A stretch of DNA of 64,000 nucleotides from Candidatus Latescibacterota bacterium (GCA_965219995.1 CBDCOX010000002.1:1536001-1600000); one strand, 5' to 3'. Positions 37,076 through 61,595 are shown, counted from the stretch's first letter. The notes: generated from the sequence alone by a model not told the origin. Translations and numbers: made by a program.

Positions 37076-37423
37076 TTAACCTCCGTTTTCATCCATTTCC
37101 TGCGATAGATCCACGAGCAACTGCAATTCTGTCACCGATCCTCGAGCCCACGTGTCTCGCTTGAACCGCTGGTGAAAGGCATCGATTTCATGTCTGGATC
37201 GCCCGGCGACCTCACGGGCGCGCTTCAGATCTTCGGATCGCATGTACGAAAGGAGATAATCTTCGCCACCCAATGTCAGCAGGAACCAGGACTCGACCTG
37301 CACTCCTTCATCGCGTAGTGTGTCCAACGCTTCGACCTTGCGCGCATTGATGGTGCTTGCCCATTTCGACACCCGGTCGCCGGAGTTTTTTTTAAGCTTG
37401 ATCAGGTTCGCTCTTACGTCCAT
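37076..37423 (-). CDS. Small hypothetical protein (DUF6176-like)
   Basis: EALDTLRDEGV..ES.F, HEIDAFH; family recalled, not searched. Confidence 0.6.
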   Translation of the reverse strand: MDVRANLIKLKKNSGDRVSKWASTINARKVEALDTLRDEGVQVESWFLLTLGGEDYLLSYMRSEDLKRAREVAGRSRHEIDAFHQRFKRDTWARGSVTELQLLVDLSQEMDENGG

Positions 37424-38457
37424 GGTCGCTCCGGGAATTTATCCGTACGGTATGTTATCTCATTTGATGATTCTGTCAGTCGACTGCCTGCCGCTGACGA
37501 ATCGAGAAGCGTCAGCACGGTTGTCCGGTCCCAGCCTCCCGGCCCCGGACCCTGGTACGCGGCGAGGATGTCCAGCAACCTTGCCAGCGAATGTAGTTTT
37601 AGAACCAACTCTTGCTCCGCACTCAACATTCCATAAGTTCGCCAGAAACATCCGGATATTTCCGGTGTAGTGATGAATACGGTAAGATAAAGATCTCTGG
37701 AGTCGGTAAATGCCGGAGCAATTTTGGCCTTTCCGAAATCGAGAACCGCTACCAGATTCAAGGTTTCCGGATCTACACGAAGATTATGCAACTGAAAGTC
37801 ATGATGGACAAGGGCATCAACTTCCGCTGCTTCCATAGAATCGACCTGGTCGGTCCAGAGCGCAATGCAGCGATCGAGCGTGTCTTTCCCCAGCCAGCCT
37901 TGTTTCCGTAGAAGCCCTATTGCGCGATGGAATCTGTTCTCCTCGGACTTCCGCCACTCGCTTCCGCTAACCGGGTCGCCGAGAATGGCGGCGACATCCG
38001 GCCCGATAGGAATTGCGTGGAGGTCCCTCATTTGCCCGGCGCATTGCGTGAGAATCTTTTCCTTGTCTTCGAAGCCAATCTCACTCCACACCCGGTCGCC
38101 ATCGACGCCTGCCGTGTACTCAATCAGCGCGTGAGGATACGGGACAGTGGCGTCACCCGATGAGACGCAGATCCACAGTGGCGTAGGCACCGAGGATTCA
38201 CGTTGGACTAATCTGACAACCCGTTCCTCCCTTCGCATCACCTCATCGTCCGAGCATCTGACCCAAACCTTTAATATGAGCGAATCACCATCAGGCAAGT
38301 CCAGAAGAAAAATCGCATTCGCTTCCCCTCGCTTCAATCGCCGGATCGAAGTCGGTTCCCGGATGCCGGCTTTTAAACAAACGGCCTGCGCGATTGGGAG
38401 CGAAAGATCATAATTGACGAATTCCTGGTATGTCAGCAGTGGCTTTGGTGAAGTCAT
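37414..38457 (-). CDS. APH-like phosphotransferase
   Basis: LVHHDFQLHNL, VLDFG. Confidence 0.8.
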   Translation of the reverse strand: MTSPKPLLTYQEFVNYDLSLPIAQAVCLKAGIREPTSIRRLKRGEANAIFLLDLPDGDSLILKVWVRCSDDEVMRREERVVRLVQRESSVPTPLWICVSSGDATVPYPHALIEYTAGVDGDRVWSEIGFEDKEKILTQCAGQMRDLHAIPIGPDVAAILGDPVSGSEWRKSEENRFHRAIGLLRKQGWLGKDTLDRCIALWTDQVDSMEAAEVDALVHHDFQLHNLRVDPETLNLVAVLDFGKAKIAPAFTDSRDLYLTVFITTPEISGCFWRTYGMLSAEQELVLKLHSLARLLDILAAYQGPGPGGWDRTTVLTLLDSSAAGSRLTESSNEITYRTDKFPERPWT

Positions 38458-38482
38458 AAGCAAGTGAAAAATGGTCCGACAA

Positions 38483-38854
38483 TCACCTCGACCAATGGCT
38501 GTCGTAGGCCGCACGAAAATTCAACGGTGGTGATGTGACTGACATATAGATAAAGGTCCGGGTACCGGAATTGTAGAACCCATGAAGGTCACCTTCCTCA
38601 AATCGAACAACGTCACCTTCAGCGAACTCTGCGACCGCCCCATTTTCCAGAATCAGATTTCCGGAACCTTGCAAGGCGATCCATATCTGTTCCGATGCGT
38701 TATGTCGATGCGCAGGATTCGTGCCGCCAGGAGGGACAGAAACCTGTGTAATCGTAACCCTTTGCGACGATGAGTTTTCCGGAAACAGCAGTTGTCGAGA
38801 AACAATTCCAGAATTGCTGAACACCTGGATTTCCGCCGAGCGAATCAGTTCCAT
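38483..38854 (-). CDS. Cupin domain protein
   Basis: HRH.ASEQIW, GDLHG. Confidence 0.88.
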   Translation of the reverse strand: MELIRSAEIQVFSNSGIVSRQLLFPENSSSQRVTITQVSVPPGGTNPAHRHNASEQIWIALQGSGNLILENGAVAEFAEGDVVRFEEGDLHGFYNSGTRTFIYMSVTSPPLNFRAAYDSHWSR

Positions 38855-38979
38855 ATCGAATCCTTCCCAACCACTTTTCGGATAACGCGGTGACGGTTAA
38901 CGAACCGATGCGGATTTCCATAGGCCAAGGTGCCCGACGAATGGTGCAGCGCGGCACCGAACACCTGTTTGACTAAGCT

Positions 38980-40159: not shown

Positions 40160-41138
40160 TCAATCTATGCCTTCGATTGCAGCCTCACCCATACGAATCG
40201 CCGTATCCGGGAGCGCGAGTATCCGGTCTTCCAGGGCCCAGGTCGCCCGATTAGGCGAATTCGGTCCCCACTTCCGGTGGAGTTGGGAGAGACGCCTGGC
40301 ATAGTAGGCGGCAAAGATGAACGGGAGTGCGGTACGTTCATCTTCGGAAGGATGTCGTACTGAGAAGTACCCCTCCACGAACCGCTGCATTTCCTCATCG
40401 GTAAGCTGTCGACCCACGGTCCCCATCAGCCATTGCATCCGTACCATCACGACGTCTTCGAGCGCCGGAGCGAAGTGAGCCGAGTTGAAGTCGGTGAATC
40501 GGATTTCGCCCGAAGGGGAAGCAATCGTGTTCCAGCTTCTCACGTCTCCGCGGCAGAAGAGCCACCGGACATCCATTTTATCCGGCATGCCGTTCAACTG
40601 TGCTCGAAGCCGGGTAACAGCATCCGCCATGTCCAAGGAAAACGTCGTCCTCTCGCAATACTCGAGCGCCTCGGAGATGTACGTCCGCGCATCTTTGACT
40701 TCTGAACTGCAGGCTGGAAAGTCTTCGCTCGCATCGTGAACCCGTGCGAGAGCCTCCCCCACGTCGGCGAGCGTATCGACGCGGTCTACGACCTCTCCTT
40801 CAAGGAAGCTCTCGACCGATATCACCAGGTCTCGAACGGACTTGCAAGCGCCTCCCATCCGTGGTCAGGCGGATGTCGGGGCACGGCGCGCCGCGACAGG
40901 CAAGGTGTCGTACGAACGCCACGATGGTTTTGGGATGGGTCGCGCAGTCCCACCCCGGATTTGCGAGAAACACAACGCGTCCGTGCCGCAAGCTGTCGCA
41001 AAAGAAGACACACCGGGAATTCGCCCTGCGGACGCTGGTTACCTCCAGATCCCAGAATCGCTTGCAGAGATCCGTGATTTCCCCCTGATCAGGCAGCGGC
41101 CCCGTTTCGTCTCTGGATCTGGGATAGCGTGCATCCAT
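40160..41138 (-). pseudogene. Phosphotransferase (APH/homoserine kinase-like), frameshifted
   Basis: ORF 40800-41186 gives the N-lobe and ORF 40160-40858 the RGDVRSWN/TDFN part; frame changes near 40850. Confidence 0.7.
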
Positions 41139-49588: not shown

Positions 49589-49682
49589 CTCGAACGTTAT
49601 CACCACCTGCGACCCCGTGCATGCGGGGTGCGCGCAAGCGCCAGGCACAGAATGTCGTGCAACGCAAATGGACGTGATATAT
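49589..49682 (-). mobile_element. attC-like site with non-canonical R'' (ATATATC)
   Basis: Minus strand ATATATC-acgtc-CATTTGCG ... CGCAGGTG-gtgataac-GTTCGAG; same 5 nt and 8 nt spacers as neighbouring sites. Confidence 0.7.
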
Positions 49683-49726
49683 TACGTGGGAATTCTCACT
49701 CAGTCAATTCTTTGCCGGTGTATTGC

Positions 49727-50623
49727 TCAGTTCGGGGCTTGCGCAAAAGACGCGACAGATGACGTGTACGCGTGGCCTCCCGCCTGCCTTCGCTTCTCAA
49801 GACTGCTATGAAGTTCGTTAGACTCCCAGTTCCCGCTCTCTGCCTCCTCACGCCACTTCATGTTGTATGTCTCTCGCTTGCAAACGTCCAGGTGCTTCGG
49901 GGCAAGCGTGAGCCACGTCTTCCCTGAAGTAACACATCCGAAACCGTTAACGCATGGCGAGTGCATGTAGAGCAGGTTCTTCGCCAGGTACGTCAGATAG
50001 TCTTCCGAACAGTACCTGGCTCCGTTATGACTCAGTTCGTCGTTGCAGTTGATGGTCTTGTGCCGGCAAAGTCGGTCCCTTGTCTCCCATGGATTCAGGA
50101 TCAGTCCGTCGGAGTCACACAGATACGCATTGTAAGAAGGGTCAACCATCACCCAATTCGAGAGAGTCGAACACCAAACCACCGTAACAACATGATTATC
50201 ATAGTCATACGGATTCAGAGGATTCAGAGATACCAATCTGCTCGGCAATCCCAGAGACAGGCAGGCTTCTGTCAGCACGATAGAAAGCATGTAACAGTTG
50301 ATGCCGTAGTCCTCGCCTTTGCCGAACGAATACCTCAGAAGTCCCGAAGCGTTCATGGGCAGGGATTTGCAGACTTCGGGCAGCGATTTGGTGATGTCGC
50401 CTCTGTGGCATACGCCCTCAGACATCCACTGCATCAAGTTCAGGACCCTGGACCATTCGTCTCCACCTCCGGCAATCCGATCAAGTCCATATACTTTGCG
50501 CAGGCGCTCGAGCTCTGGATGTGAGAGTTCATACTGGAAGCCAGGTGCCAACTCGTCCGGAAACGAATCAAACTCGTCAAATAGGCGTAAGAGCCCGCAG
50601 TATAGCCTGAACTGGTTATTCAT
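49727..50623 (-). CDS. Transglutaminase-like domain protein (cassette)
   Basis: INCY, NHVV, WVMVDP catalytic triad pattern. Confidence 0.85.
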   Translation of the reverse strand: MNNQFRLYCGLLRLFDEFDSFPDELAPGFQYELSHPELERLRKVYGLDRIAGGGDEWSRVLNLMQWMSEGVCHRGDITKSLPEVCKSLPMNASGLLRYSFGKGEDYGINCYMLSIVLTEACLSLGLPSRLVSLNPLNPYDYDNHVVTVVWCSTLSNWVMVDPSYNAYLCDSDGLILNPWETRDRLCRHKTINCNDELSHNGARYCSEDYLTYLAKNLLYMHSPCVNGFGCVTSGKTWLTLAPKHLDVCKRETYNMKWREEAESGNWESNELHSSLEKRRQAGGHAYTSSVASFAQAPN

Positions 50624-50664
50624 CGTTGCTTCCTCAAGTTATGTTGATTCTATCTTCCCATTTT

Positions 50665-50750
50665 ATATATCGTCCTCGCAGGCTGCGAACCTGCGAAGCG
50701 GGTTGAGCGAAGGCGCGAATACGCAGGAGCCACAGCCCGTCGTGTTATAC
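50665..50750 (-). mobile_element. attC-like site with R' GATATAT
   Basis: Minus strand GTATAAC-acgac-GGGCTGTGG.cctgcg ... cgcagg.CGCAGCCT-gcgaggac-GATATAT. Confidence 0.75.
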
Positions 50751-50763
50751 GATGGCGGCCTGA

Positions 50764-51180
50764 TCACGCGAAGCCCAGGAGGGCAATAGTCTTCATAACC
50801 TGGGTCGCCAGTACCAGCATGTGGTACACTTTTCCGCCTCCGCTTTCCTCAACGTCTACACAGGAGAACCCAATCTCACGAGCCGTCAGCAAGAAAGCTT
50901 CCGTGTTCCTGGTTAGACGGCGCGACGCGTGCATACGGTTACCCAGGACGGCGGGCATGGGAAGGTGCTGAAGAGCTTTTCAGTGACGTCTCCAGTCTGA
51001 GCAGGGCAAGGAGGTGTTATAGGAAGTGCCAAACCTGTTCCCTTACCACAGCAATCTCAATTCCGCACACATTCCCGCCAGACGGCTTTGAAAGGCTTTC
51101 CTGTGTAATTCCATCAGGTACGAATAGGTGCTCGATCTCGAGATGCGTCCACTCTTGAAAGTGACCTTCAAGCTCGGATT
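50764..51180 (-). pseudogene. Probable 3' remnant of a cassette gene
   Basis: 64 aa ORF 50764-50958 ends 13 bp before an attC; no full-length ORF or start recognisable upstream. Confidence 0.4.
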
Positions 51181-51184
51181 GGGA

Positions 51185-51204
51185 GCGGCAACAGGTTGTT
51201 ATGA
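51185..51204 (-). mobile_element. Truncated attC (R''-L'' half only)
   Basis: Minus strand TCATAAC-aacct-GTTGCCGC; same L'' as at 60642-60649; complementary to GTTATGT at 52178-52184. Confidence 0.6.
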
Positions 51205-51230
51205 GAAAGTTTCATCTCGGTCGGCTGCCG

Positions 51231-52148
51231 CTACTCGGGAGCCCCAAGTTCACGGAGTCTATCAATTTCCCGGTAGACCGCACGTTGTTCACGGTCCAGA
51301 GTGCCGTCCGGCCCGGTGCGCCATCTCTGACGCGCCAATGCATAACCCAAGGGCGTGACTTCCTTGATTTCGCTGCCTACATAACATCTCGCCCGCATGG
51401 ATAGATCCGGTCCGTGTCGCAGGAGACAATCGAAGGCTTCGTAGCAAGAGCCAAAGGCGCGCCCAATTGTGTGAAAGATGGGCGTCTGTTCACCGGTTCC
51501 ATCAAAGATGATCTGGGTACGTCGCCCATCATTCGTCTCATGGATCGGACCGATCGCATCAATGTCAGCTCCATAATTGAGCAACAGCTCCACGAACTCC
51601 GCATCGTTGTGGGCCGCAGCCACGTGAAGCAACGTGCCGCTGGTTGGTATGGCGTGCGAAGTGTCTTCGTGGATCTGGTGAATCAATAACGGGTCCCGTT
51701 GAATTCGCCGCTCAAGGGAACTCAAATCGCCGCGATGAATATCCATGTAGGGTCCATCTTCATAATCAGCTCCGGCGTCGATGAGAACATTCACGAATTC
51801 GTAACGCCACTGACCGGCAGAACCCAACCCGGCCATGAGTCCCGGATTGGGTCGCACGCCACGAGCGAGTAGACGCTTGACCTGCGCCATGTCCCGATTC
51901 CCAACGCAATGGGCAAGCGAGTGGTTCAGGAAATCAAGGTTTGCGCCCGCGGCTAATAGCGCATCAATGCTTCCCTGTTGATCGCGCGCATTTGCGTAAC
52001 GGATCGGCGTGATCAATCGCCGGCGTCCCTTGCTATCGGTCCATAGGAACTCCTGGCCGATCTGAGTTGGATCCCGATCCAGAAGTTCATTGATGCGCGA
52101 GATATCGCCTTTCTCAATGGCTCTCTTCAACGGATTATCGGTGCCCAT
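51231..52148 (-). CDS. Ankyrin repeat protein (cassette)
   Basis: TLLHVAAAHND, LLNYGADIDA, TPLGYAL. Confidence 0.85.
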   Translation of the reverse strand: MGTDNPLKRAIEKGDISRINELLDRDPTQIGQEFLWTDSKGRRRLITPIRYANARDQQGSIDALLAAGANLDFLNHSLAHCVGNRDMAQVKRLLARGVRPNPGLMAGLGSAGQWRYEFVNVLIDAGADYEDGPYMDIHRGDLSSLERRIQRDPLLIHQIHEDTSHAIPTSGTLLHVAAAHNDAEFVELLLNYGADIDAIGPIHETNDGRRTQIIFDGTGEQTPIFHTIGRAFGSCYEAFDCLLRHGPDLSMRARCYVGSEIKEVTPLGYALARQRWRTGPDGTLDREQRAVYREIDRLRELGAPE

Positions 52149-52525
52149 GCCTATTCGATGTTGTGATTTGGAATTTCACATAACTACGGTATTACCAAAC
52201 AGTTACGGTAATTTGTATCTGGTCGGAGGATCTGCGAACGTTCGATTACGTTGGCACTTATAGCCGAAGATGTTGCGGATCCCGGATCTTCTGTCAACTG
52301 ACTCGACCACGTGATTGTGGGCCACTGTCCAGGTCGCTTAAGCGGTCGTAGCGTCCCGGCTGCGCGAGGGTTTCCCACGTTATTCCCCTGCCCTGAGACG
52401 ACCCAATTCGATCACGGTCGGCATCGTCACCTCCCCCTTGGGACCCAATCCCGCAACCGTCCGGAAATTTCTCAACGCCTGACGTGTGGCCTCGCTTAGT
52501 TCACTGTCCACCAGCCCGGTACGAT

Positions 52526-53026
52526 TCACGCCTCATCAGCGCAGTCGTCCTTCTTCTCGTGGCGTAATGTGCGTTCAAGTTCTGCCAGGAATCCGCTCTC
52601 ACTAATAAATCCTGAAAATCCTCCGTAGTCGCTCAAGTCTGAACAGGCTGTCAGAATCGAATTTGCCGCCATATCACTGGATATCTTCGCTTTAATCCCA
52701 TTCAAATAAGATTCAAGATCCGGACGGTCCTGCAAAGCGCCTAACGCTCTGGGCCTGATTCCGGCGATTTCACGTTCCACGTCAATTCGCCATCCCTTAT
52801 GCTTGAGAAATGACCGAAACGCGATTTCCTCGGCTTTTTCCAGATGACCATCGATATAGAGCGTCATCACCGCAGCTTCAAGAAAGGCCAATTGTTCATC
52901 TGTCGTAAGCTTTCGCGGATCGATAATTGAGCGCATTCTGGAACTGAAGAGCTTAAAGAGAGTGCCTACGAGGATTGGTGCAAGAATGAAAATAGCTATC
53001 ACTGCAATTGAGTCATCTGAGAACAT
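52526..53026 (-). CDS. Hypothetical protein with N-terminal TM helix, TerB-like
   Basis: IDGHLEKAE motif; start at MFSDD after aggggg. Confidence 0.55.
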   Translation of the reverse strand: MFSDDSIAVIAIFILAPILVGTLFKLFSSRMRSIIDPRKLTTDEQLAFLEAAVMTLYIDGHLEKAEEIAFRSFLKHKGWRIDVEREIAGIRPRALGALQDRPDLESYLNGIKAKISSDMAANSILTACSDLSDYGGFSGFISESGFLAELERTLRHEKKDDCADEA

Positions 53027-53230
53027 CGATCCCCCTGCAACAGGTGTTTGTCCTATTTGTCTGACGTTCGGCGAACATACCGACGGCAAGTCGGGTGAGG
53101 GATGGGACGGACCGAGCCGCAAGTGCTGCCGTCACCCGACGCCGGGACGATCGTGCTGCACTCCATGACGCCGAGGCCGCGAACCAGCGACATCCGCTAA
53201 TCGATTCAGCCCCGCGCGTTTCACATTGTT

Positions 53231-53857
53231 TCACATCATCAGGAAGTTCCTGCCATACTGATACGCGGTCTCGAGATTTCTTGCCCTGTTGCTCGATGTT
53301 GCAAAGTGATCCGCCATACCAGGGAGGAGCGCGAACTCACAATGCTTCACACCCGCGTCAGGGCGGAGGCGATCATGGGTGTATAACCGCCTCATGGCTT
53401 CAGCAATTCCAGTCTCTTCCAAACCTTCCAGAGTATTCCCCACCGGACAGAGAACGAGAGCCCTTTCGACTGAGAGTCGAGGAAACGGATAGGTCTCCCC
53501 GGCAAACTGGTACTCGTAGGCGTATCCGCAGACCCAAACCCGGTCGAACCATCCCTTCAGCTTTGCCGGACAATCGCTCCACCAGACGGGAAAGACAAAG
53601 GCCAGGCCGTCTGCCCTGCCGATCTTGCTGTGTTCGGCCTGCACGTCCAATGGTATGGGGAGAGTGGCGCGATTGCCCTGGACGTTCATCTCGCGAACGT
53701 ACTCATCCGGACTCATCTCGCATTTGAAGTCCATTTCATACAGGTCGCCGATCTCGTATGAATGCCCTCCGTCGTCGAGTCCTCGACACAACTCGCCCAA
53801 GACCTTCCCGGTAAAGGACCCTCTCGTCGGGTGCGCAAAGACGACGTATGCATGCAT
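53231..53857 (-). CDS. NAD(P)H-dependent oxidoreductase (flavodoxin-like, quinone reductase type)
   Basis: FAHP, DLY, FPVWWSDCPAKLKGWFDRV. Confidence 0.9.
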   Translation of the reverse strand: MHAYVVFAHPTRGSFTGKVLGELCRGLDDGGHSYEIGDLYEMDFKCEMSPDEYVREMNVQGNRATLPIPLDVQAEHSKIGRADGLAFVFPVWWSDCPAKLKGWFDRVWVCGYAYEYQFAGETYPFPRLSVERALVLCPVGNTLEGLEETGIAEAMRRLYTHDRLRPDAGVKHCEFALLPGMADHFATSSNRARNLETAYQYGRNFLMM

Positions 53858-53986
53858 AAAAAGGTTCTCCGTCAAAAGCGGTGTGGGACACGCCGCCCAT
53901 GATTTTGATATCTATCCCCGGTTGGGCGTATCGACAATCCGTTAACTGACCCCTGATGCTCGGTTAAGGGTTCGCGCCGGCGACAT

Positions 53987-54859
53987 TCATCCTCCCATCA
54001 TGTCCGGTTGAGGAAGTCCAAGTTCCTGAATCGTCCACTCAAGACCTGTAATTAGATGCGCCCTCTGCAGTTTGCGAACCAACGTTGTATGAGGCAGGTC
54101 CGGCAACCCTGCACGCGAAGCGAAATAACCCGTAACGTACGACGCCAGGTGACCCGCGCCCGCAAGGATATCCCGTGGTGGCGGTCCACCCTCGTGGCGA
54201 AGGCCGGGCAGCCAAAAGGCAATGTCGAGGTCGGGATTGCCGGAGCAGGCGTTGTTCCAGTCGATCAATACAGCCCGGTCGGCGCGAAAGCAGATATTGT
54301 CACTTCTCACGTCAAGATGGACAAGCGCCTTGCCTTCCGGTTCAACGCGATCGTGCGCCTCCAGAAGGGTGGGTAGACACTCTGTCAACCACGATTCGCT
54401 TGCAACGCGTATCGACAGGAAGGCCTCGGGGTGCTCCGCAACGTCGTGCCAACCTCTATGGGCAAAGGCCTCGCGATATTCAGGCACACTCGCCTGGCTC
54501 CCATGTATCATTGCCAGGCTGTCAAGAACCATATCGATACCTGAGGTCGTCCAGGGCGGAGGCCATAGGTTCCCGGACAGATCCTCCAATATCAGCAACG
54601 GAGGTTCCTCCTCGTCCCACGCAAGAGCGGCCGCCATGAAATCGCCGGAAAGTTGGCGATAGATCGAAATCTCGGAATGTAGCCACCTACTGGTGCGCCG
54701 GTCCGTCGCACACTTCGCAAATGCCGTGTTTCCGTCCCGGAAATTTACGATTCTTCGGCAGGCGTTTGTGTAACCTCCCTGAACCGGTAGCAGCCGGTCC
54801 ACTTCTCGTCCGGTCAGATCCGCTATTCGCGATTCAAGTACTTCGCAGCTATAATCCAT
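53987..54859 (-). CDS. APH-like phosphotransferase
   Basis: LVHLDVRSDN, LIDWN. Confidence 0.85.
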   Translation of the reverse strand: MDYSCEVLESRIADLTGREVDRLLPVQGGYTNACRRIVNFRDGNTAFAKCATDRRTSRWLHSEISIYRQLSGDFMAAALAWDEEEPPLLILEDLSGNLWPPPWTTSGIDMVLDSLAMIHGSQASVPEYREAFAHRGWHDVAEHPEAFLSIRVASESWLTECLPTLLEAHDRVEPEGKALVHLDVRSDNICFRADRAVLIDWNNACSGNPDLDIAFWLPGLRHEGGPPPRDILAGAGHLASYVTGYFASRAGLPDLPHTTLVRKLQRAHLITGLEWTIQELGLPQPDMMGG

Positions 54860-55012
54860 GGCCCGCCTGAAGGAGATAACAGACAACGTGGCGCCGTATT
54901 GCGTACCTCGAAGGTGATTGAACAAGACCAGCGCGTCATCCGTCAAGCTAAGGACAGGCTTTGCCGCAAAGCGGAAGCCGGTTGTCAGTCGGTATACGGG
55001 GTTTTGCGGAGC

Positions 55013-55633
55013 CTACCGGCAGGCCTTCGACAGCGGCTGGTCCTCAGACACCGTGATATACCTCCTCGGAATTGTGATCCCCTTGTCCTTTCTGATCGCC
55101 TGCACTCCCGGAGCGACGTGCCCTCCACGGTAATCCAAAACAGGAACCAGGGAGTGGACAGTCGCACGCACGACTTCGTGCCCCGTTCGACAGTCGTATC
55201 CGAGATCCATAGCCGGGCGCCCTCGCCTGGTTACATGCTTGCACTCGAAACCGTGCGCGTGATCGACGACATACAGACCGGGAAAATTAGACCGCACCTC
55301 TATCCGAAGCAGGTAGTCGCCCACGGCATGTCGTACCATTTCAAGTGGCAGATCGCCGAAATATGACCCGCTGAGCCATTTCGGGTCCGGCGACAGCAAG
55401 CCCTCAACAAAGAAACATCCCTCGAATTCCGGCGTCAGATCGGTCGCGAGAACCGGAAGCCTTGCCCGCAGGCCTCCCGAGTCCATAATCTCGTCGAGTT
55501 TGTTCCGGTGCGTGTAGTGGTAGAATACGACGTTGCCCGCGTCGGATTTCTCGATCCTGGCAGGATCGCCTTTGTACCCGAGGTCGGCCAGGAACGTCCC
55601 CCTGCACGTAAGAAAAGTCTCGCAGACTCTCAT
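55013..55633 (-). CDS. Hypothetical protein with YHYT motif
   Basis: VFYHYTHRNKLDEIMDSGGL. Confidence 0.65.
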   Translation of the reverse strand: MRVCETFLTCRGTFLADLGYKGDPARIEKSDAGNVVFYHYTHRNKLDEIMDSGGLRARLPVLATDLTPEFEGCFFVEGLLSPDPKWLSGSYFGDLPLEMVRHAVGDYLLRIEVRSNFPGLYVVDHAHGFECKHVTRRGRPAMDLGYDCRTGHEVVRATVHSLVPVLDYRGGHVAPGVQAIRKDKGITIPRRYITVSEDQPLSKACR

Positions 55634-55686
55634 TATGCCAAACCAGAATTCAAGATTGAAAAGGGATGGAAACTCCGGTGTATTGC

Positions 55687-55938
55687 TCAGTTCGGCGCTT
55701 GCGCAAAGGACTCGACGGATGACGTGTACGCGAGGCTTCCGGTCTGCATCGCATTCAAAACCTTCGACAAGTCGTCACCGCCTCCTGCGACCTGATCAAG
55801 TCGATATGCTTCGCGCAGCCGCTCGAGCTCAGGATGTGAGACCTCGTATTGGAAGCCTGGCGCCGACTCGTCCGGTAACGAATCAAACTCGTCAAACAAG
55901 CGTAAGAGCCCGCAGTTTAGCCTGAACTGGTAATTCAT
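55687..55938 (-). pseudogene. Internally deleted copy of the transglutaminase-like gene
   Basis: First 65 and last 18 residues match 49727-50623; 215 codons missing in frame. Confidence 0.9.
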
Positions 55939-55979
55939 CGTCACTGCCTCAAGTTATGTTGATTCTCTCTTCCCACTTT

Positions 55980-56080
55980 ATAAATCGTTCATCCGTTACC
56001 GAACCCCGGGAGCACAGCGAAGTGGGTTGCCGGAGGCCAAGCCGCCACCGGCCCCGCAGCGCAACACCGTGCTGTTAGAC
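55980..56080 (-). mobile_element. attC-like site (R'' GTCTAAC, R' GATTTAT)
   Basis: Minus strand GTCTAAC-agcac-GGTGTTGC, matching the site at 57554; upstream gene stop TAA lies within R''; L' degenerate. Confidence 0.75.
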
Positions 56081-57523
56081 GGTGTCGCCCCCTGCATTCA
56101 GATGCTGATCAGCAAATCTTTGGTAGACATCAGAGTCCGGTTTGCTCGCGCTGTGGAGCCAATTCACTGATGTCGCCATCATATAGGGACGCCACATTGG
56201 ACTTACGATTCCGTAATTTTGGAATATCGCGACTGGGAACTTGTAGTCGTGTGCGTCAGGGTTGGCCTTTCTCTGGACAAGCTGACGCGATCTGCGCAAA
56301 AACGTGTCCAGGCCAAACGCCTTCTTGCCATATGTGAACGCCAACTTCTCCGCTTCTTCAATTCCAGACCTGTCCTCTATCTGTTGCCTCATCTCTCGAC
56401 TTGGGAGCAGCGAGAACACTTCCTCCGTCGCGTCCTCACTCGATTCAATGCCTTCCTTCGGGGCAAGGTCCGTAATCTTCCTGTCCCGCAAATTCCCGTG
56501 TTCGTGCTCAATGCCAATAAAGTTCGCGACCCATCCCACCGCTTGCAACAGAACGAAGAGCCGAGTCGTCTGACTCACAGTATCCTCGAACGCATAGTGC
56601 ATCGCGTTGGCTACGGTATTCGAATGCAATGGACGCGTGTTAATGCCTCCGGATCCTGCGTATCCCCCCTGTTTATGTCGGTGCATGAACTCACCAGCCG
56701 AAAGGAAAACTGCGTCCCAGACTGCTCCGGCAGGCACCCCAGAATCGACTATCTGACTGTACGCCATATCAGTGGCGCGATCCATCTCGCCAGCGCGAAT
56801 CTCCGAAAGCAACTCCAAAGTGGAGGTCTCATCGAAGCCTGCTCTCACCCAATCTGGCGCCAAACTCGAAGCCCTCGTGGCTCGTTCCATGTTCTCTCGG
56901 TATGGTTGCGAATCCAAGTCCCCAACGCGAGACATCAGATCCGATACGATGAATCGAAGGATTGGCTCAGAGTAGTGCCATCCCACGGTTTGGAGACTTC
57001 GCCAACAATTAGCGACAGCTATGATCTTGTGGCCGATGAAGCCCCATTCCTTCGCCCCATAGTGCCAGAGTTCCTCGATAATGTCACGCGGGCTCCACGA
57101 CCTACTCAGCCCAATCAGGGATCGCTCGGCTCGCCCTTGATCCCAGGAGTCCATCGCTTCTCTGAATTCCAGCAATGCTTTATCGCCCGTTGGGTATACG
57201 CCTTCCAGAGCGTCACGTGGCGGCTTTGCGTAATTCTCTTGAGCCCTCTTCAGGCTGTCGAGACCCCAAAAGACAGGGATGAGTCGATCTGCCCCAACTG
57301 AATCCAGGCTCATCTGATGAGCGGAATAAACCAGATACACTTCGTGATGCGTGCCTTCACAGGAACTGGCGGCAACCAGTAGGGCTGCAAGTGCCTGCCT
57401 GTACGTGAGCCCCTTTCTGAACTCGTCGGCAAGCATCTCAACCGCTCCTTCACGCGGCACATCTATCATTCGCTTGACAATGGGCTGAAGAGCCTCGCTC
57501 AGCTCTGTATGTCGTAGCGTCAT
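56075..57523 (-). CDS. Hypothetical alpha-helical protein with recurring His motifs (cassette)
   Basis: GHKII, HSNTVANA, HDYKF; flanked by GTTAGAC/GTCTAAC. Confidence 0.75.
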   Translation of the reverse strand: MTLRHTELSEALQPIVKRMIDVPREGAVEMLADEFRKGLTYRQALAALLVAASSCEGTHHEVYLVYSAHQMSLDSVGADRLIPVFWGLDSLKRAQENYAKPPRDALEGVYPTGDKALLEFREAMDSWDQGRAERSLIGLSRSWSPRDIIEELWHYGAKEWGFIGHKIIAVANCWRSLQTVGWHYSEPILRFIVSDLMSRVGDLDSQPYRENMERATRASSLAPDWVRAGFDETSTLELLSEIRAGEMDRATDMAYSQIVDSGVPAGAVWDAVFLSAGEFMHRHKQGGYAGSGGINTRPLHSNTVANAMHYAFEDTVSQTTRLFVLLQAVGWVANFIGIEHEHGNLRDRKITDLAPKEGIESSEDATEEVFSLLPSREMRQQIEDRSGIEEAEKLAFTYGKKAFGLDTFLRRSRQLVQRKANPDAHDYKFPVAIFQNYGIVSPMWRPYMMATSVNWLHSASKPDSDVYQRFADQHLNAGGDTV

Positions 57524-57553: not shown

Positions 57554-57645
57554 GTCTAACGTCTCGCCGGTTTGCGAACAGCGAAGGTGGTTGCCCAAGG
57601 CAAAGGCGATAGTAGCCGTCGCAGCGCAACACCGTGCTGTCAGCG
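57554..57645 (-). mobile_element. attC site (best preserved)
   Basis: Minus strand CGCTGAC-agcac-GGT(G)TTGC ... GCAAACC-ggcgagac-GTTAGAC; extrahelical base at position 4 of L''; R' fits GTTRRRY. Confidence 0.85.
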
Positions 57646-57682: not shown

Positions 57683-58291
57683 CTATTCAGACAGAAACCG
57701 TTGCCAGCGATGACCCTCGGGATACAAGACTTCCAACCCGGCTCCCAACCATCTCTTTGCCTCGGCGGACATCAGCGGCAGGCAGGTCTGAAAGTCCAGG
57801 TCATCTTTCGAACGAGGATTCTTGGCTTTGTGCAGAAGCTGGACCTCAATCCGTATACAGGGAACACTCCCGTATGCAACGATCAAGTCGCCTCGCTGCC
57901 CGCCAATCAGTCTGCTGCGCTTGCTGAACCACCTGTCGCCTTCGCTTTCGGTCAACATGATCTGAAGCTGCCATACCTGTATGCCGGCATGGCCCCATAT
58001 GTCATGTATCCCGTAAGGCAAGTATTCTGATTCGGCCCATGGTCGCAATGAACCGGGCGGATCGGCCGCGTACAGATGCCAATCCGAGAGCCAGCGCTTT
58101 ACCTCGAGTTGTTGATCCCGGTACACGATGACGTCAATATCACCGTGGTCCCGTACACGGGTTCCCACGAACTGCTCTACCGCATGGCCGCCGGCGAGTC
58201 CCCACATGAAAGGAGCGTTGGCGAACAATTTCGTCAACTCCTTGACGGACAAGGGTTTCCATTGGCTGAAGGGAATCTCAGGAGTGGTCAT
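57683..58291 (-). CDS. Nucleotidyltransferase, ANT(2'')/lincosamide nucleotidyltransferase-like (cassette)
   Basis: WGLAGGHAV....G...RDHGDIDV, QLLHK, KD..D. Confidence 0.8.
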   Translation of the reverse strand: MTTPEIPFSQWKPLSVKELTKLFANAPFMWGLAGGHAVEQFVGTRVRDHGDIDVIVYRDQQLEVKRWLSDWHLYAADPPGSLRPWAESEYLPYGIHDIWGHAGIQVWQLQIMLTESEGDRWFSKRSRLIGGQRGDLIVAYGSVPCIRIEVQLLHKAKNPRSKDDLDFQTCLPLMSAEAKRWLGAGLEVLYPEGHRWQRFLSE

Positions 58292-60254: not shown

Positions 60255-60579
60255 CTCGCTCCTCTGATTATGAAGGCCTTCACCGGTAATATCCCAATTG
60301 GGGTGGATTGGGTGTACTTATCCTATGTATTTTGGTCTCCTGAGAGGAACAGGAAGATCGCAAAATATTAATAAACAATGGTTTAAAAGATTCCAAAAGA
60401 CGAACGCCACATTGTGCTATTCGATGATATTGGGCCTGCCCGGAGAGTGTTCGGGGCTGGCAGTCGGAAGGAAATGAAGGGAGGGCCTAAAAAGGCTGGG
60501 TTGTTGGGGATTATTGTCAATGCCTGTTATATGTCGTCTTTTTCAGGGCGGTCAAATGTCGGCCTGCATTCCCGCCACT

Positions 60580-60661
60580 TGCTAACCCGCCCGGCTCTAT
60601 TGGCCGGGCTGCCCGCGGGACCAGGGCGAGAATGGGCCGCAGCGGCAACAAGCTGTTACAC
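60580..60661 (-). mobile_element. Degenerate attC-like site
   Basis: Minus strand GTGTAAC-agctt-GTTGCCGCtgcgg ... GTTAGCA; right half poorly paired. Confidence 0.5.
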
Positions 60662-60696
60662 GATTATGATTCACAACCGACACCGGATGGTGCCAT

Positions 60697-61495: not shown

Positions 61496-61595
61496 AATTA
61501 TCGTTCAGGCACTCGTTTTACGTGTTGTGCATTCCCGCAGCCGCGAATCGATTAGGCGAGGGGAATGCCCGAAGTAGAAAACGCTGCTGTTACGC
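61496..61595 (-). mobile_element. attC-like site
   Basis: Minus strand GCGTAAC-agcag-CGTTTTctAC..gcattccc ... gggaatgc..GTAAAACG-11 nt-GATAATT; R' assignment uncertain. Confidence 0.6.

Follow-up and report, generated by a model that had tools for sequence, protein, structure and literature searches.

A probable heritable GAT/ATC variant of the attC core in an integrase-less cassette array of Candidatus Latescibacterota

A gene cassette in the distal part of a large array

The DNA analysed here, referred to as the window, is a stretch of 64,000 nucleotides (nt) from a Candidatus Latescibacterota bacterium (GCA_965219995.1, CBDCOX010000002.1:1536001-1600000; G000:C2:1536001-1600000 in our notation, G000 being the window's own genome). 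It holds an integron-type gene cassette encoding a weakly transglutaminase-like protein, whose first bases complete a recombination core reading GAT where attC sites usually read GTT, and whose own attC carries the matching ATC in place of AAC. Coordinates are those of the window unless labelled otherwise. Nearly all long open reading frames (ORFs) lie on the minus strand, from ~12.8 kb to the window end. Many have no Pfam match, and the rest match a mixture of families such as cassette arrays usually hold (APH-family kinases, NUDIX, cupin, FMN reductases, an ANT(2'')-like protein, a methyltransferase and ankyrin).

The window is the distal part of a large, co-oriented integron-type cassette array without an integron integrase. 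With the covariance model R2 described below (E ≤ 0.01), G000 carries 16 attC matches in 124 kb, all on the minus strand, spanning window position 49589 up to C2:1,655,161; the site at 49589-49682 is the last of the array that the model detects, and an FMN-reductase gene follows it as a conserved flank. No integron integrase (IntI) was found in G000, where the best score against TIGR02249 was 92 bits (cut-off 265 bits), leaving the array short of a complete integron. Only two PF00589 genes occur in this genome, at 2.16 and 3.16 Mb and far from the array, and tblastn with the IntI of G017 (465 bits) returned only the same two. Of 15 genomes from the genus (G000 and 14 others), not one exceeded the cut-off. 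As a cluster with two or more attC sites and no IntI, the array is a cluster of attC sites lacking an integron integrase (CALIN) as Cury et al. 2016 (PMC4889954) use the term.

The cassette and the two sites that delimit it comprise the following features:

50665..50750, minus strand: attC type A of the upstream cassette (R1 84.5 bits, R2 84 bits; orthologous sites in 5 other genomes)
50750..50744, minus strand: R'' of the type A attC, GTATAAC (from the model ends)
50671..50665, minus strand: R' of the type A attC, GATATAT (last 7 model positions)
49595..50670, minus strand: transglutaminase-like gene cassette, 1076 nt (synteny breaks among copies at both ends, and model ends)
49727..50623, minus strand: ORF of 298 amino acids (aa), weakly transglutaminase-like (PF01841)
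49589..49682, minus strand: the cassette's own attC (R2 51.4 bits; alignment of homologous sites; conserved FMN-reductase flank)
49682..49676, minus strand: R'' of the own attC, ATATATC (first 7 model positions)
49595..49589, minus strand: R' of the own attC, GTTCGAG, canonical (model and alignment of homologous sites)

Cassette limits are given as crossover points, after the G at 50671 and through the G at 49595; the G of GATATAT belongs to the type A attC, and the transglutaminase-like cassette opens with the six bases ATATAT. GATATAT and ATATATC are complementary at 7/7 positions. The original prediction, made from the window alone, had read the former as R' of the preceding attC and the latter as R'' of the cassette's own attC, and the covariance models place both where it put them (84 and 51 bits). 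The 298-aa ORF falls short of membership in PF01841 (E 2.9e-4, 21.5 bits against a 23-bit cut-off, profile positions 52-108 only) and a sequence comparison with PDB gave no match at E ≤ 0.1.

Identification of the attC family

The cassette and its flanks were retrieved from 10 other genomes of the genus, and the 5' and 3' junctions were aligned to locate synteny breaks. The 5' break falls directly before or at GAT and the 3' break after ...RAC G, so the cassette's own attC ends G|TTCGAG (49595..49589). GATAACG had been considered as R' of this site and was rejected, the alignment of homologous sites shifting R' six bases on to GTTCGAG. Fifteen junction-delimited sites, with 60% mean column identity in their alignment, served as seeds for a first covariance model (R1), and a second (R2) was rebuilt from 150 of the R1 matches. 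In 759 kb of array DNA from 13 genomes of the genus, R1 yielded 152 sites and R2 195 (E ≤ 0.01), all 195 of them on the array strand of their genome. Within the window R1 recovered its own seeds only, and R2 added two more.

The R2 consensus, acaUAAC...GAgAAC GUUAgac, is a canonical R''/R' pair with the inverted-repeat ends RYYYAAC/GTTRRRY, the GAT/ATC cassette deviating from these in the middle base alone. Successive sites are separated by one or a few ORFs. Seven sites of the window, searched with BLAST against G000, had no close repeats there, indicating that the sites are diverse. Two simpler searches were abandoned: the strict pattern RYYYAAC...GTTRRRY returned a single pair on each strand of the window and two at a G017 locus and was too strict, and a naive two-stem scan returned 1501 matches that were discarded as noise. 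R2 matched three sites in the whole genome of G017, none in that of G036 and none in ~60 kb around the two IntI genes of G017; these counts and empty neighbourhoods provide no link between the attC family and a real IntI.

Core triplets across the genus

A count of GAT against GTT cores, proposed with the original prediction as a check, could be made on the same 195 sites. Among R' triplets GTT accounts for 130, GTC for 24, GAT for 18 and others for 23; among R'' triplets there are 136 AAC, 11 GAC, 6 AAT, 5 ATC and 37 others. Three sister genera possess the same attC family (arrays of G015, G016 and G020; L080-L094), with 40-69 attC matches per genome and no IntI over the cut-off, and there GTT occupies 81/85 R' and AAC 74/85 R'' triplets. 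Set against 130/195, this indicates that cores have drifted in the window's genus. The FMN-reductase junction, for example, reads GTT or TTT in the 3' alignments.

A cassette is defined by a start complementary to its own R'', and this rule holds genus-wide. When the six bases that follow G in the upstream R' were compared with the reverse complement of the cassette's own R'', 108 adjacent pairs agreed at 4.12/6 positions on average (33 perfectly), against 3.08 +/- 0.08 of 6 with shuffled partners. For the 91 distinct adjacent pairs the values were 3.93/6 and 3.02 +/- 0.09, and for positions 4-7 of these pairs alone 2.45 and 1.60; in neither comparison did any of 2000 shuffles reach the observed value.

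The 18 GAT sites precede six cassette families, and eight, perhaps nine, of them precede the transglutaminase-like gene. In adjacent pairs GAT is joined to ATC four times, always in this attC type, and to AAC six times. Adjacent pairs of GTC with GAC number only two, and GTC/GAC cores probably mark decay, since a T3->C3 substitution was not cleaved by IntI1 in the experiments of Frumerie et al. (2010) on which we draw (PMC2811028).

Inheritance of the GAT/ATC pair

Among 14 full copies of the transglutaminase-like gene, ten start with GAT and one each with GTT (G003), AAT (G014) and GGT (L031); in the fourteenth, in G002 (L038), the gene lies after the FMN-reductase gene and outside the cassette frame, and its 5' region shows no relation to the cassette leader. 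Each of the three exceptions is a lone tip in a protein tree whose backbone is poorly supported: the sisters of G014 (G006) and of L031 (L028) carry GAT, and G003 is placed without resolution among GAT copies. Sister copies stand behind different attCs, as do those of G006 (type C) and G014 (type A), which group with support of 99/94. Altogether, GAT copies are found behind at least five attC types (A, B, C, D and F), of which type B is counted via its ortholog in the window; the G010 type B site was not among the R2 matches at E ≤ 0.01, though the window ortholog was. Type A itself occurs with three different upstream coding flanks (judged by eye in alignments), and the type F site before the L030 copy scores 58.9 bits. 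No attC was found upstream in two further gene contexts (L028/L031 and L041).

At the other end of the cassette, ATC is kept in the own R'' of G000, G008, G013, G006 and G004, is mutated in G001 and has been lost in others; in G008, 10/11 bases of the own R'' side are complementary to the cassette start. The pair also occurs with a second gene. In G008 (L045:10455-11393) another cassette, carrying an unrelated 286-aa ORF with no Pfam match, likewise starts with GATATAT and has a homologous attC with ATATATC. The next cassette along is similar to that which follows the transglutaminase-like cassette in G013. The proposal of a mobile, self-complementary GAT/ATC site is thus upheld as far as inheritance goes, the pair being passed on with the cassette (10/14 copies with GAT, five genomes with ATC), whereas past mobilisation is something we infer.

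Further full-length homologues of the protein comprise thirteen at 82-90% identity and two at 66-68%. Their records are titled Candidatus Latescibacterota, with two titled Gemmatimonadota. The homologues at 66-68% (L039 and L040) come from metagenome-assembled genomes (MAGs) titled Chitinophaga and Stygiobacter; they do not lie beside sites of this attC family, and their reading frames seem to begin further upstream.

A model for the variant and its relation to known systems

The transglutaminase-like cassette is in other respects an ordinary cassette of the array. We consider it likely that GAT/ATC is a real and heritable variant, a compensated change in the core of an ordinary attC, and that the array holding it, which lacks an integrase, is decaying. 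The second base of R' would have changed from T to A and the R'' base with which it pairs from A to T, leaving the R box fully paired (GATATAT/ATATATC) in the circular or folded form. Strand exchange between G and the next base would place both changed bases in the same cassette, and their travelling together with it would explain why GAT is found behind many upstream attCs and why G|TT, the normal junction, closes the cassette's own attC; every junction observed would be accounted for in this way. An integron integrase, ancestral or acting in trans and absent today, would have moved the variant in the past. This array would now be frozen and decaying, and the variant is probably immobile.

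Secondary sites of integron integrases have the consensus GWT. As in the window, crossover at GAT secondary sites occurs after the G; those sites are bare short motifs in double-stranded DNA, however, whereas in the window GAT forms the R' of a complete attC whose R'' matches it. Sedentary chromosomal integrons hold arrays of homogeneous, lineage-specific attCs, such as the Vibrio VCRs. Like VCR-type arrays, the array described here is a long series of related, alignable attCs; unlike them, it has no intI and no recognisable attI, and its sites are more diverged.

The closest known counterpart to the variant itself is engineered. In the part of their study that concerns us, Frumerie et al. (2010; PMC2811028) introduced T2->A2 together with its complement into attC and attI1, the same substitution and compensating base as in the window cassette; the frequency of attC x attI1 recombination with IntI1 rose, and the sites were cleaved in vitro. 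The same source states that GTT was conserved in all integrons characterised up to 2010, cites GAT as a preferred secondary site (its ref. 21), and found that the first base alone had to match between partners. Because IntI1 accepts T2->A2 in these experiments, the integrase that moved the window cassette need not have been unusual. Their sites were constructed experimentally on attC-aadA7 and VCR backgrounds, whereas the window's variant is natural, inherited across species and known from sequence. The array as a whole is comparable with the CALINs of Cury et al. (PMC4889954), which likewise consist of at least two co-oriented attC sites and cassette ORFs without intI nearby or in the genome; as described there, CALINs have up to 114 sites, and half lie in genomes without IntI. 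It differs from them in belonging to a Latescibacterota-like MAG lineage, in being called with home-made models and in that a third of the conserved triplets in its genus are off GTT/AAC. A literature search that did not cover supplements found neither an earlier description of a natural GAT/ATC core nor a paper tying integrons to Latescibacteria.

The second copy and other features of the window

Upstream of the cassette, the window contains a partial second copy of it (copy 2) and several further sites:

55980..56080, minus strand: attC type B of the 482-aa cassette, a weaker site (R2 match 55980-56077, 26.1 bits, E 0.0014-0.0085)
56080..56074, minus strand: R'' of the type B attC, GTCTAAC (complementary to GTTAGAC at 57560..57554, the start of the 482-aa cassette)
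55986..55980, minus strand: R' of the type B attC, GATTTAT, as modelled
55675..55985, minus strand: copy 2, a cassette remnant (repeat families D1 and D2; fuller arrangement in G010)
57554..57642, minus strand: attC with canonical R' GTTAGAC at 57560..57554 (R2 45.3 bits)
60561..60663, minus strand: weaker attC with modelled R' GCAGGCC (R2 22.3 bits)
61515..61595, minus strand: doubtful attC ending GTAAAAC (R2 11.3 bits, E 0.049, local 3.7-kb search with filters off)

Copy 2 resembles the transglutaminase-like cassette in two blocks, one at its 5' end (55744-55988, 245 nt, against 50429-50673; 84% identity) and one at its 3' end (55675-55747, 73 nt, against 49715-49787; 89% identity). Internally ~640 nt are deleted, its own attC is absent, and it continues into the ORF at 55013-55633. 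The likeness ends at 50673/55988, two bases (AC) past GAT, and AC is part of the attC family consensus, so nothing is shared upstream of the site. This agrees with the original prediction, in which similarity between the copies began at GAT. Its description of a second copy behind an unrelated attC was correct in that GATTTAT is the modelled R' of another attC, and went too far in that copy 2 is a remnant and not a whole cassette.

The arrangement around copy 2 also exists in G010, where it is found in a full-length version. The 482-aa protein (56075-57523) is 99.8% identical to its G010 counterpart (L036), which belongs to another species' genome, and the 206-aa protein (55013-55633) is 91% identical to its counterpart in L036. 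A shared arrangement with a 99.8%-identical neighbour makes a segmental origin of copy 2 likely, and the identities of both flanking proteins hint at a recent exchange of an array segment. As copy 2 is a deleted remnant without its own attC, and the arrangement is common to the two genomes, the claim that the cassette integrated at least twice cannot be read from the window. A third GAT core suggested at 61496-61502 was not borne out either: only the weak 11.3-bit match lies there, and its end, GTAAAAC, falls 13 nt short of the GAT.

Beyond the last attC that the model detects, a further 37 kb (12800-49588) is occupied by small co-oriented genes. No model match above 13 bits was obtained in this region (best 38880-38973), which is either ordinary chromosome or a run of cassettes with sites decayed beyond recognition. 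Cassette-like candidate genes of aminoglycoside-modifying families are predicted at 57683-58291, 53987-54946, 40160-40858 and 37414-38514 from weak to moderate matches, one to the ANT(2'')-like family PF10706 (E 9e-7) and three to APH-family kinases.

Alternative explanations

A number of observations weigh against a compensated GAT/ATC variant. The attC sites were called with the home-made models R1 and R2 and not with IntegronFinder; the seeds came from sites beside this cassette, 9/15 of them ended in GAT, which may slightly inflate the share of GAT, and they stay in the counts; and the genomes are related, so the counts are not independent. The folded bottom strand of an attC has an R box, an unpaired spacer, an L box and extrahelical bases. 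Folding of the sites, another check proposed at the outset, gave a divided result. Idealised circular forms fold into an R box and an inner imperfect stem with a side hairpin, whereas single-strand folds of four array-form sites are weak (z -1.9, -1.6, -1.65 and 0.05), RNAalifold on the seed alignment gives only a 4-bp consensus hairpin, and the minimum-energy fold of the window's own site in circular form pairs in a different register (TATCAC/GTGATA) in place of the R box. No extrahelical bases were identified. ATATAT is in addition of low complexity and self-complementary, 12/18 GAT sites have a next attC without the ATC partner or no scored next attC, and drift of the core is seen in a downstream cassette that starts GTC, CGG or CAG in three genomes. 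In G000, G008, G006 and G014, moreover, the conserved distal flank is where the gene lies or is close by, which fits a cassette long resident there.

The last point underlies a reading that we regard as unlikely, in which a terminal cassette never moved with a GAT core and has lain by the chromosomal flank since before the genus diverged. Upstream change would then come from cassette turnover and from segmental or homologous exchange, and GAT and ATC would be two neutral substitutions in an unselected array. Such a history would accord with the FMN-reductase gene, which follows directly in G000 and G008 and is one cassette further on in G006 and G014, with copy 2 and its G010 counterpart, both devoid of attC beside an almost identical flank, with the drift of cores (GTT 67% in the genus) and with the six cassette families that start with GAT, most of them without an ATC partner. 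It is less easily reconciled with two transversions at two pairing positions, unlikely jointly when ATC occupies 5/195 R'' triplets, 4 of them in this attC type, or with the same attC type and start flanking an unrelated gene mid-array in G008. Moreover, any exchange that supplied a new upstream attC would still need a crossover exactly at G|AT, and the L030 copy, with its GAT behind a well-scoring attC, has other flanks. Turnover of neighbours and segmental exchange may nonetheless account for part of the change in context, in place of repeated integration of the transglutaminase-like cassette.

A second reading, which we hold to be improbable, is that arrays of this Latescibacterota family are maintained by a tyrosine recombinase other than IntI, the candidate being an Xer-like protein encoded at or near array heads. 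Full-length solo genes precede the first attC by 0.9-4.8 kb on the same strand in G012 (L010:1171-1983) and G013 (L008:1171-2172), another is found inside the array of G016 (L007:1171-2139), and fragments occur in L045, L046, L050, L053, L062 and L079, in arrays of G008, G003, G011 and G015. Sister genera that keep many homogeneous attCs, 81/85 with GTT cores, without an IntI over the cut-off would suit this reading, and the tolerated cores GAT/ATC and GTC/GAC would then follow from what such a non-IntI recombinase accepts. The protein scores 210-219 bits against NF040815 (XerA-type), just below the cut-off of 220, and is 36% identical to the IntI of G017, but it has no stretch matching positions 175-234 of TIGR02249, the IntI-specific region. 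Its orientation relative to the cassettes varies (G016), and G000 has no copy. A relative with 51% identity in G020, furthermore, belongs to a 2.5-kb IS91-family element present in six copies, in which a tyrosine recombinase is paired with a Y2/Zn-finger transposase.

The copies of this element (L081:2840-5345, and others in L080, L083, L085, L086 and L087) are 94-99.6% identical. Five of the six have a co-oriented attC 0.6-1.5 kb past the transposase end, and one also has an attC ~0.6 kb upstream. In G017 (L005/L091 and L092) the same IS91-family gene pair directly follows both IntI genes.

The original prediction had attributed the variant to a cognate integrase whose core specificity was relaxed or shifted, so that it preferred or required GAT. 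This we consider very improbable. GAT is the third commonest core of the genus, as such an enzyme might lead one to expect; however, an integron integrase is absent from the 15 genomes of the genus, GTT remains the majority and reaches 95% in the sister genera that share this attC family, and IntI1 already accepts the T2->A2 change in the work cited above (PMC2811028). That the sites are some other intergenic repeat and the GAT/ATC match a product of chance is scarcely credible despite the weak fold statistics and the single strict-pattern pair per strand of the window, given 195/195 co-oriented matches, a consensus ending in UAAC and GUUAgac, a start-to-R'' rule that holds and one or a few ORFs between sites.

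Conclusions

The GTT/AAC triplet is treated as the invariant sequence feature of integron sites, and site-finding programs rely on it. A compensated GAT/ATC variant, likely in our view, would form a base-paired lineage that extends across species and two different genes, and so provide evidence from the field that matches the mutagenesis of IntI1 substrates in 2010, in which the second base was free provided that the site could fold. In practice, strict GTT/AAC patterns miss real cassettes, as the single pair per strand found in the window illustrates. The GAT/ATC finding alone points to no new enzyme. Its wider setting may prove more useful to follow, since a phylum that has received little study contains large attC arrays without IntI that are decaying in one genus yet well preserved in the sister genera.

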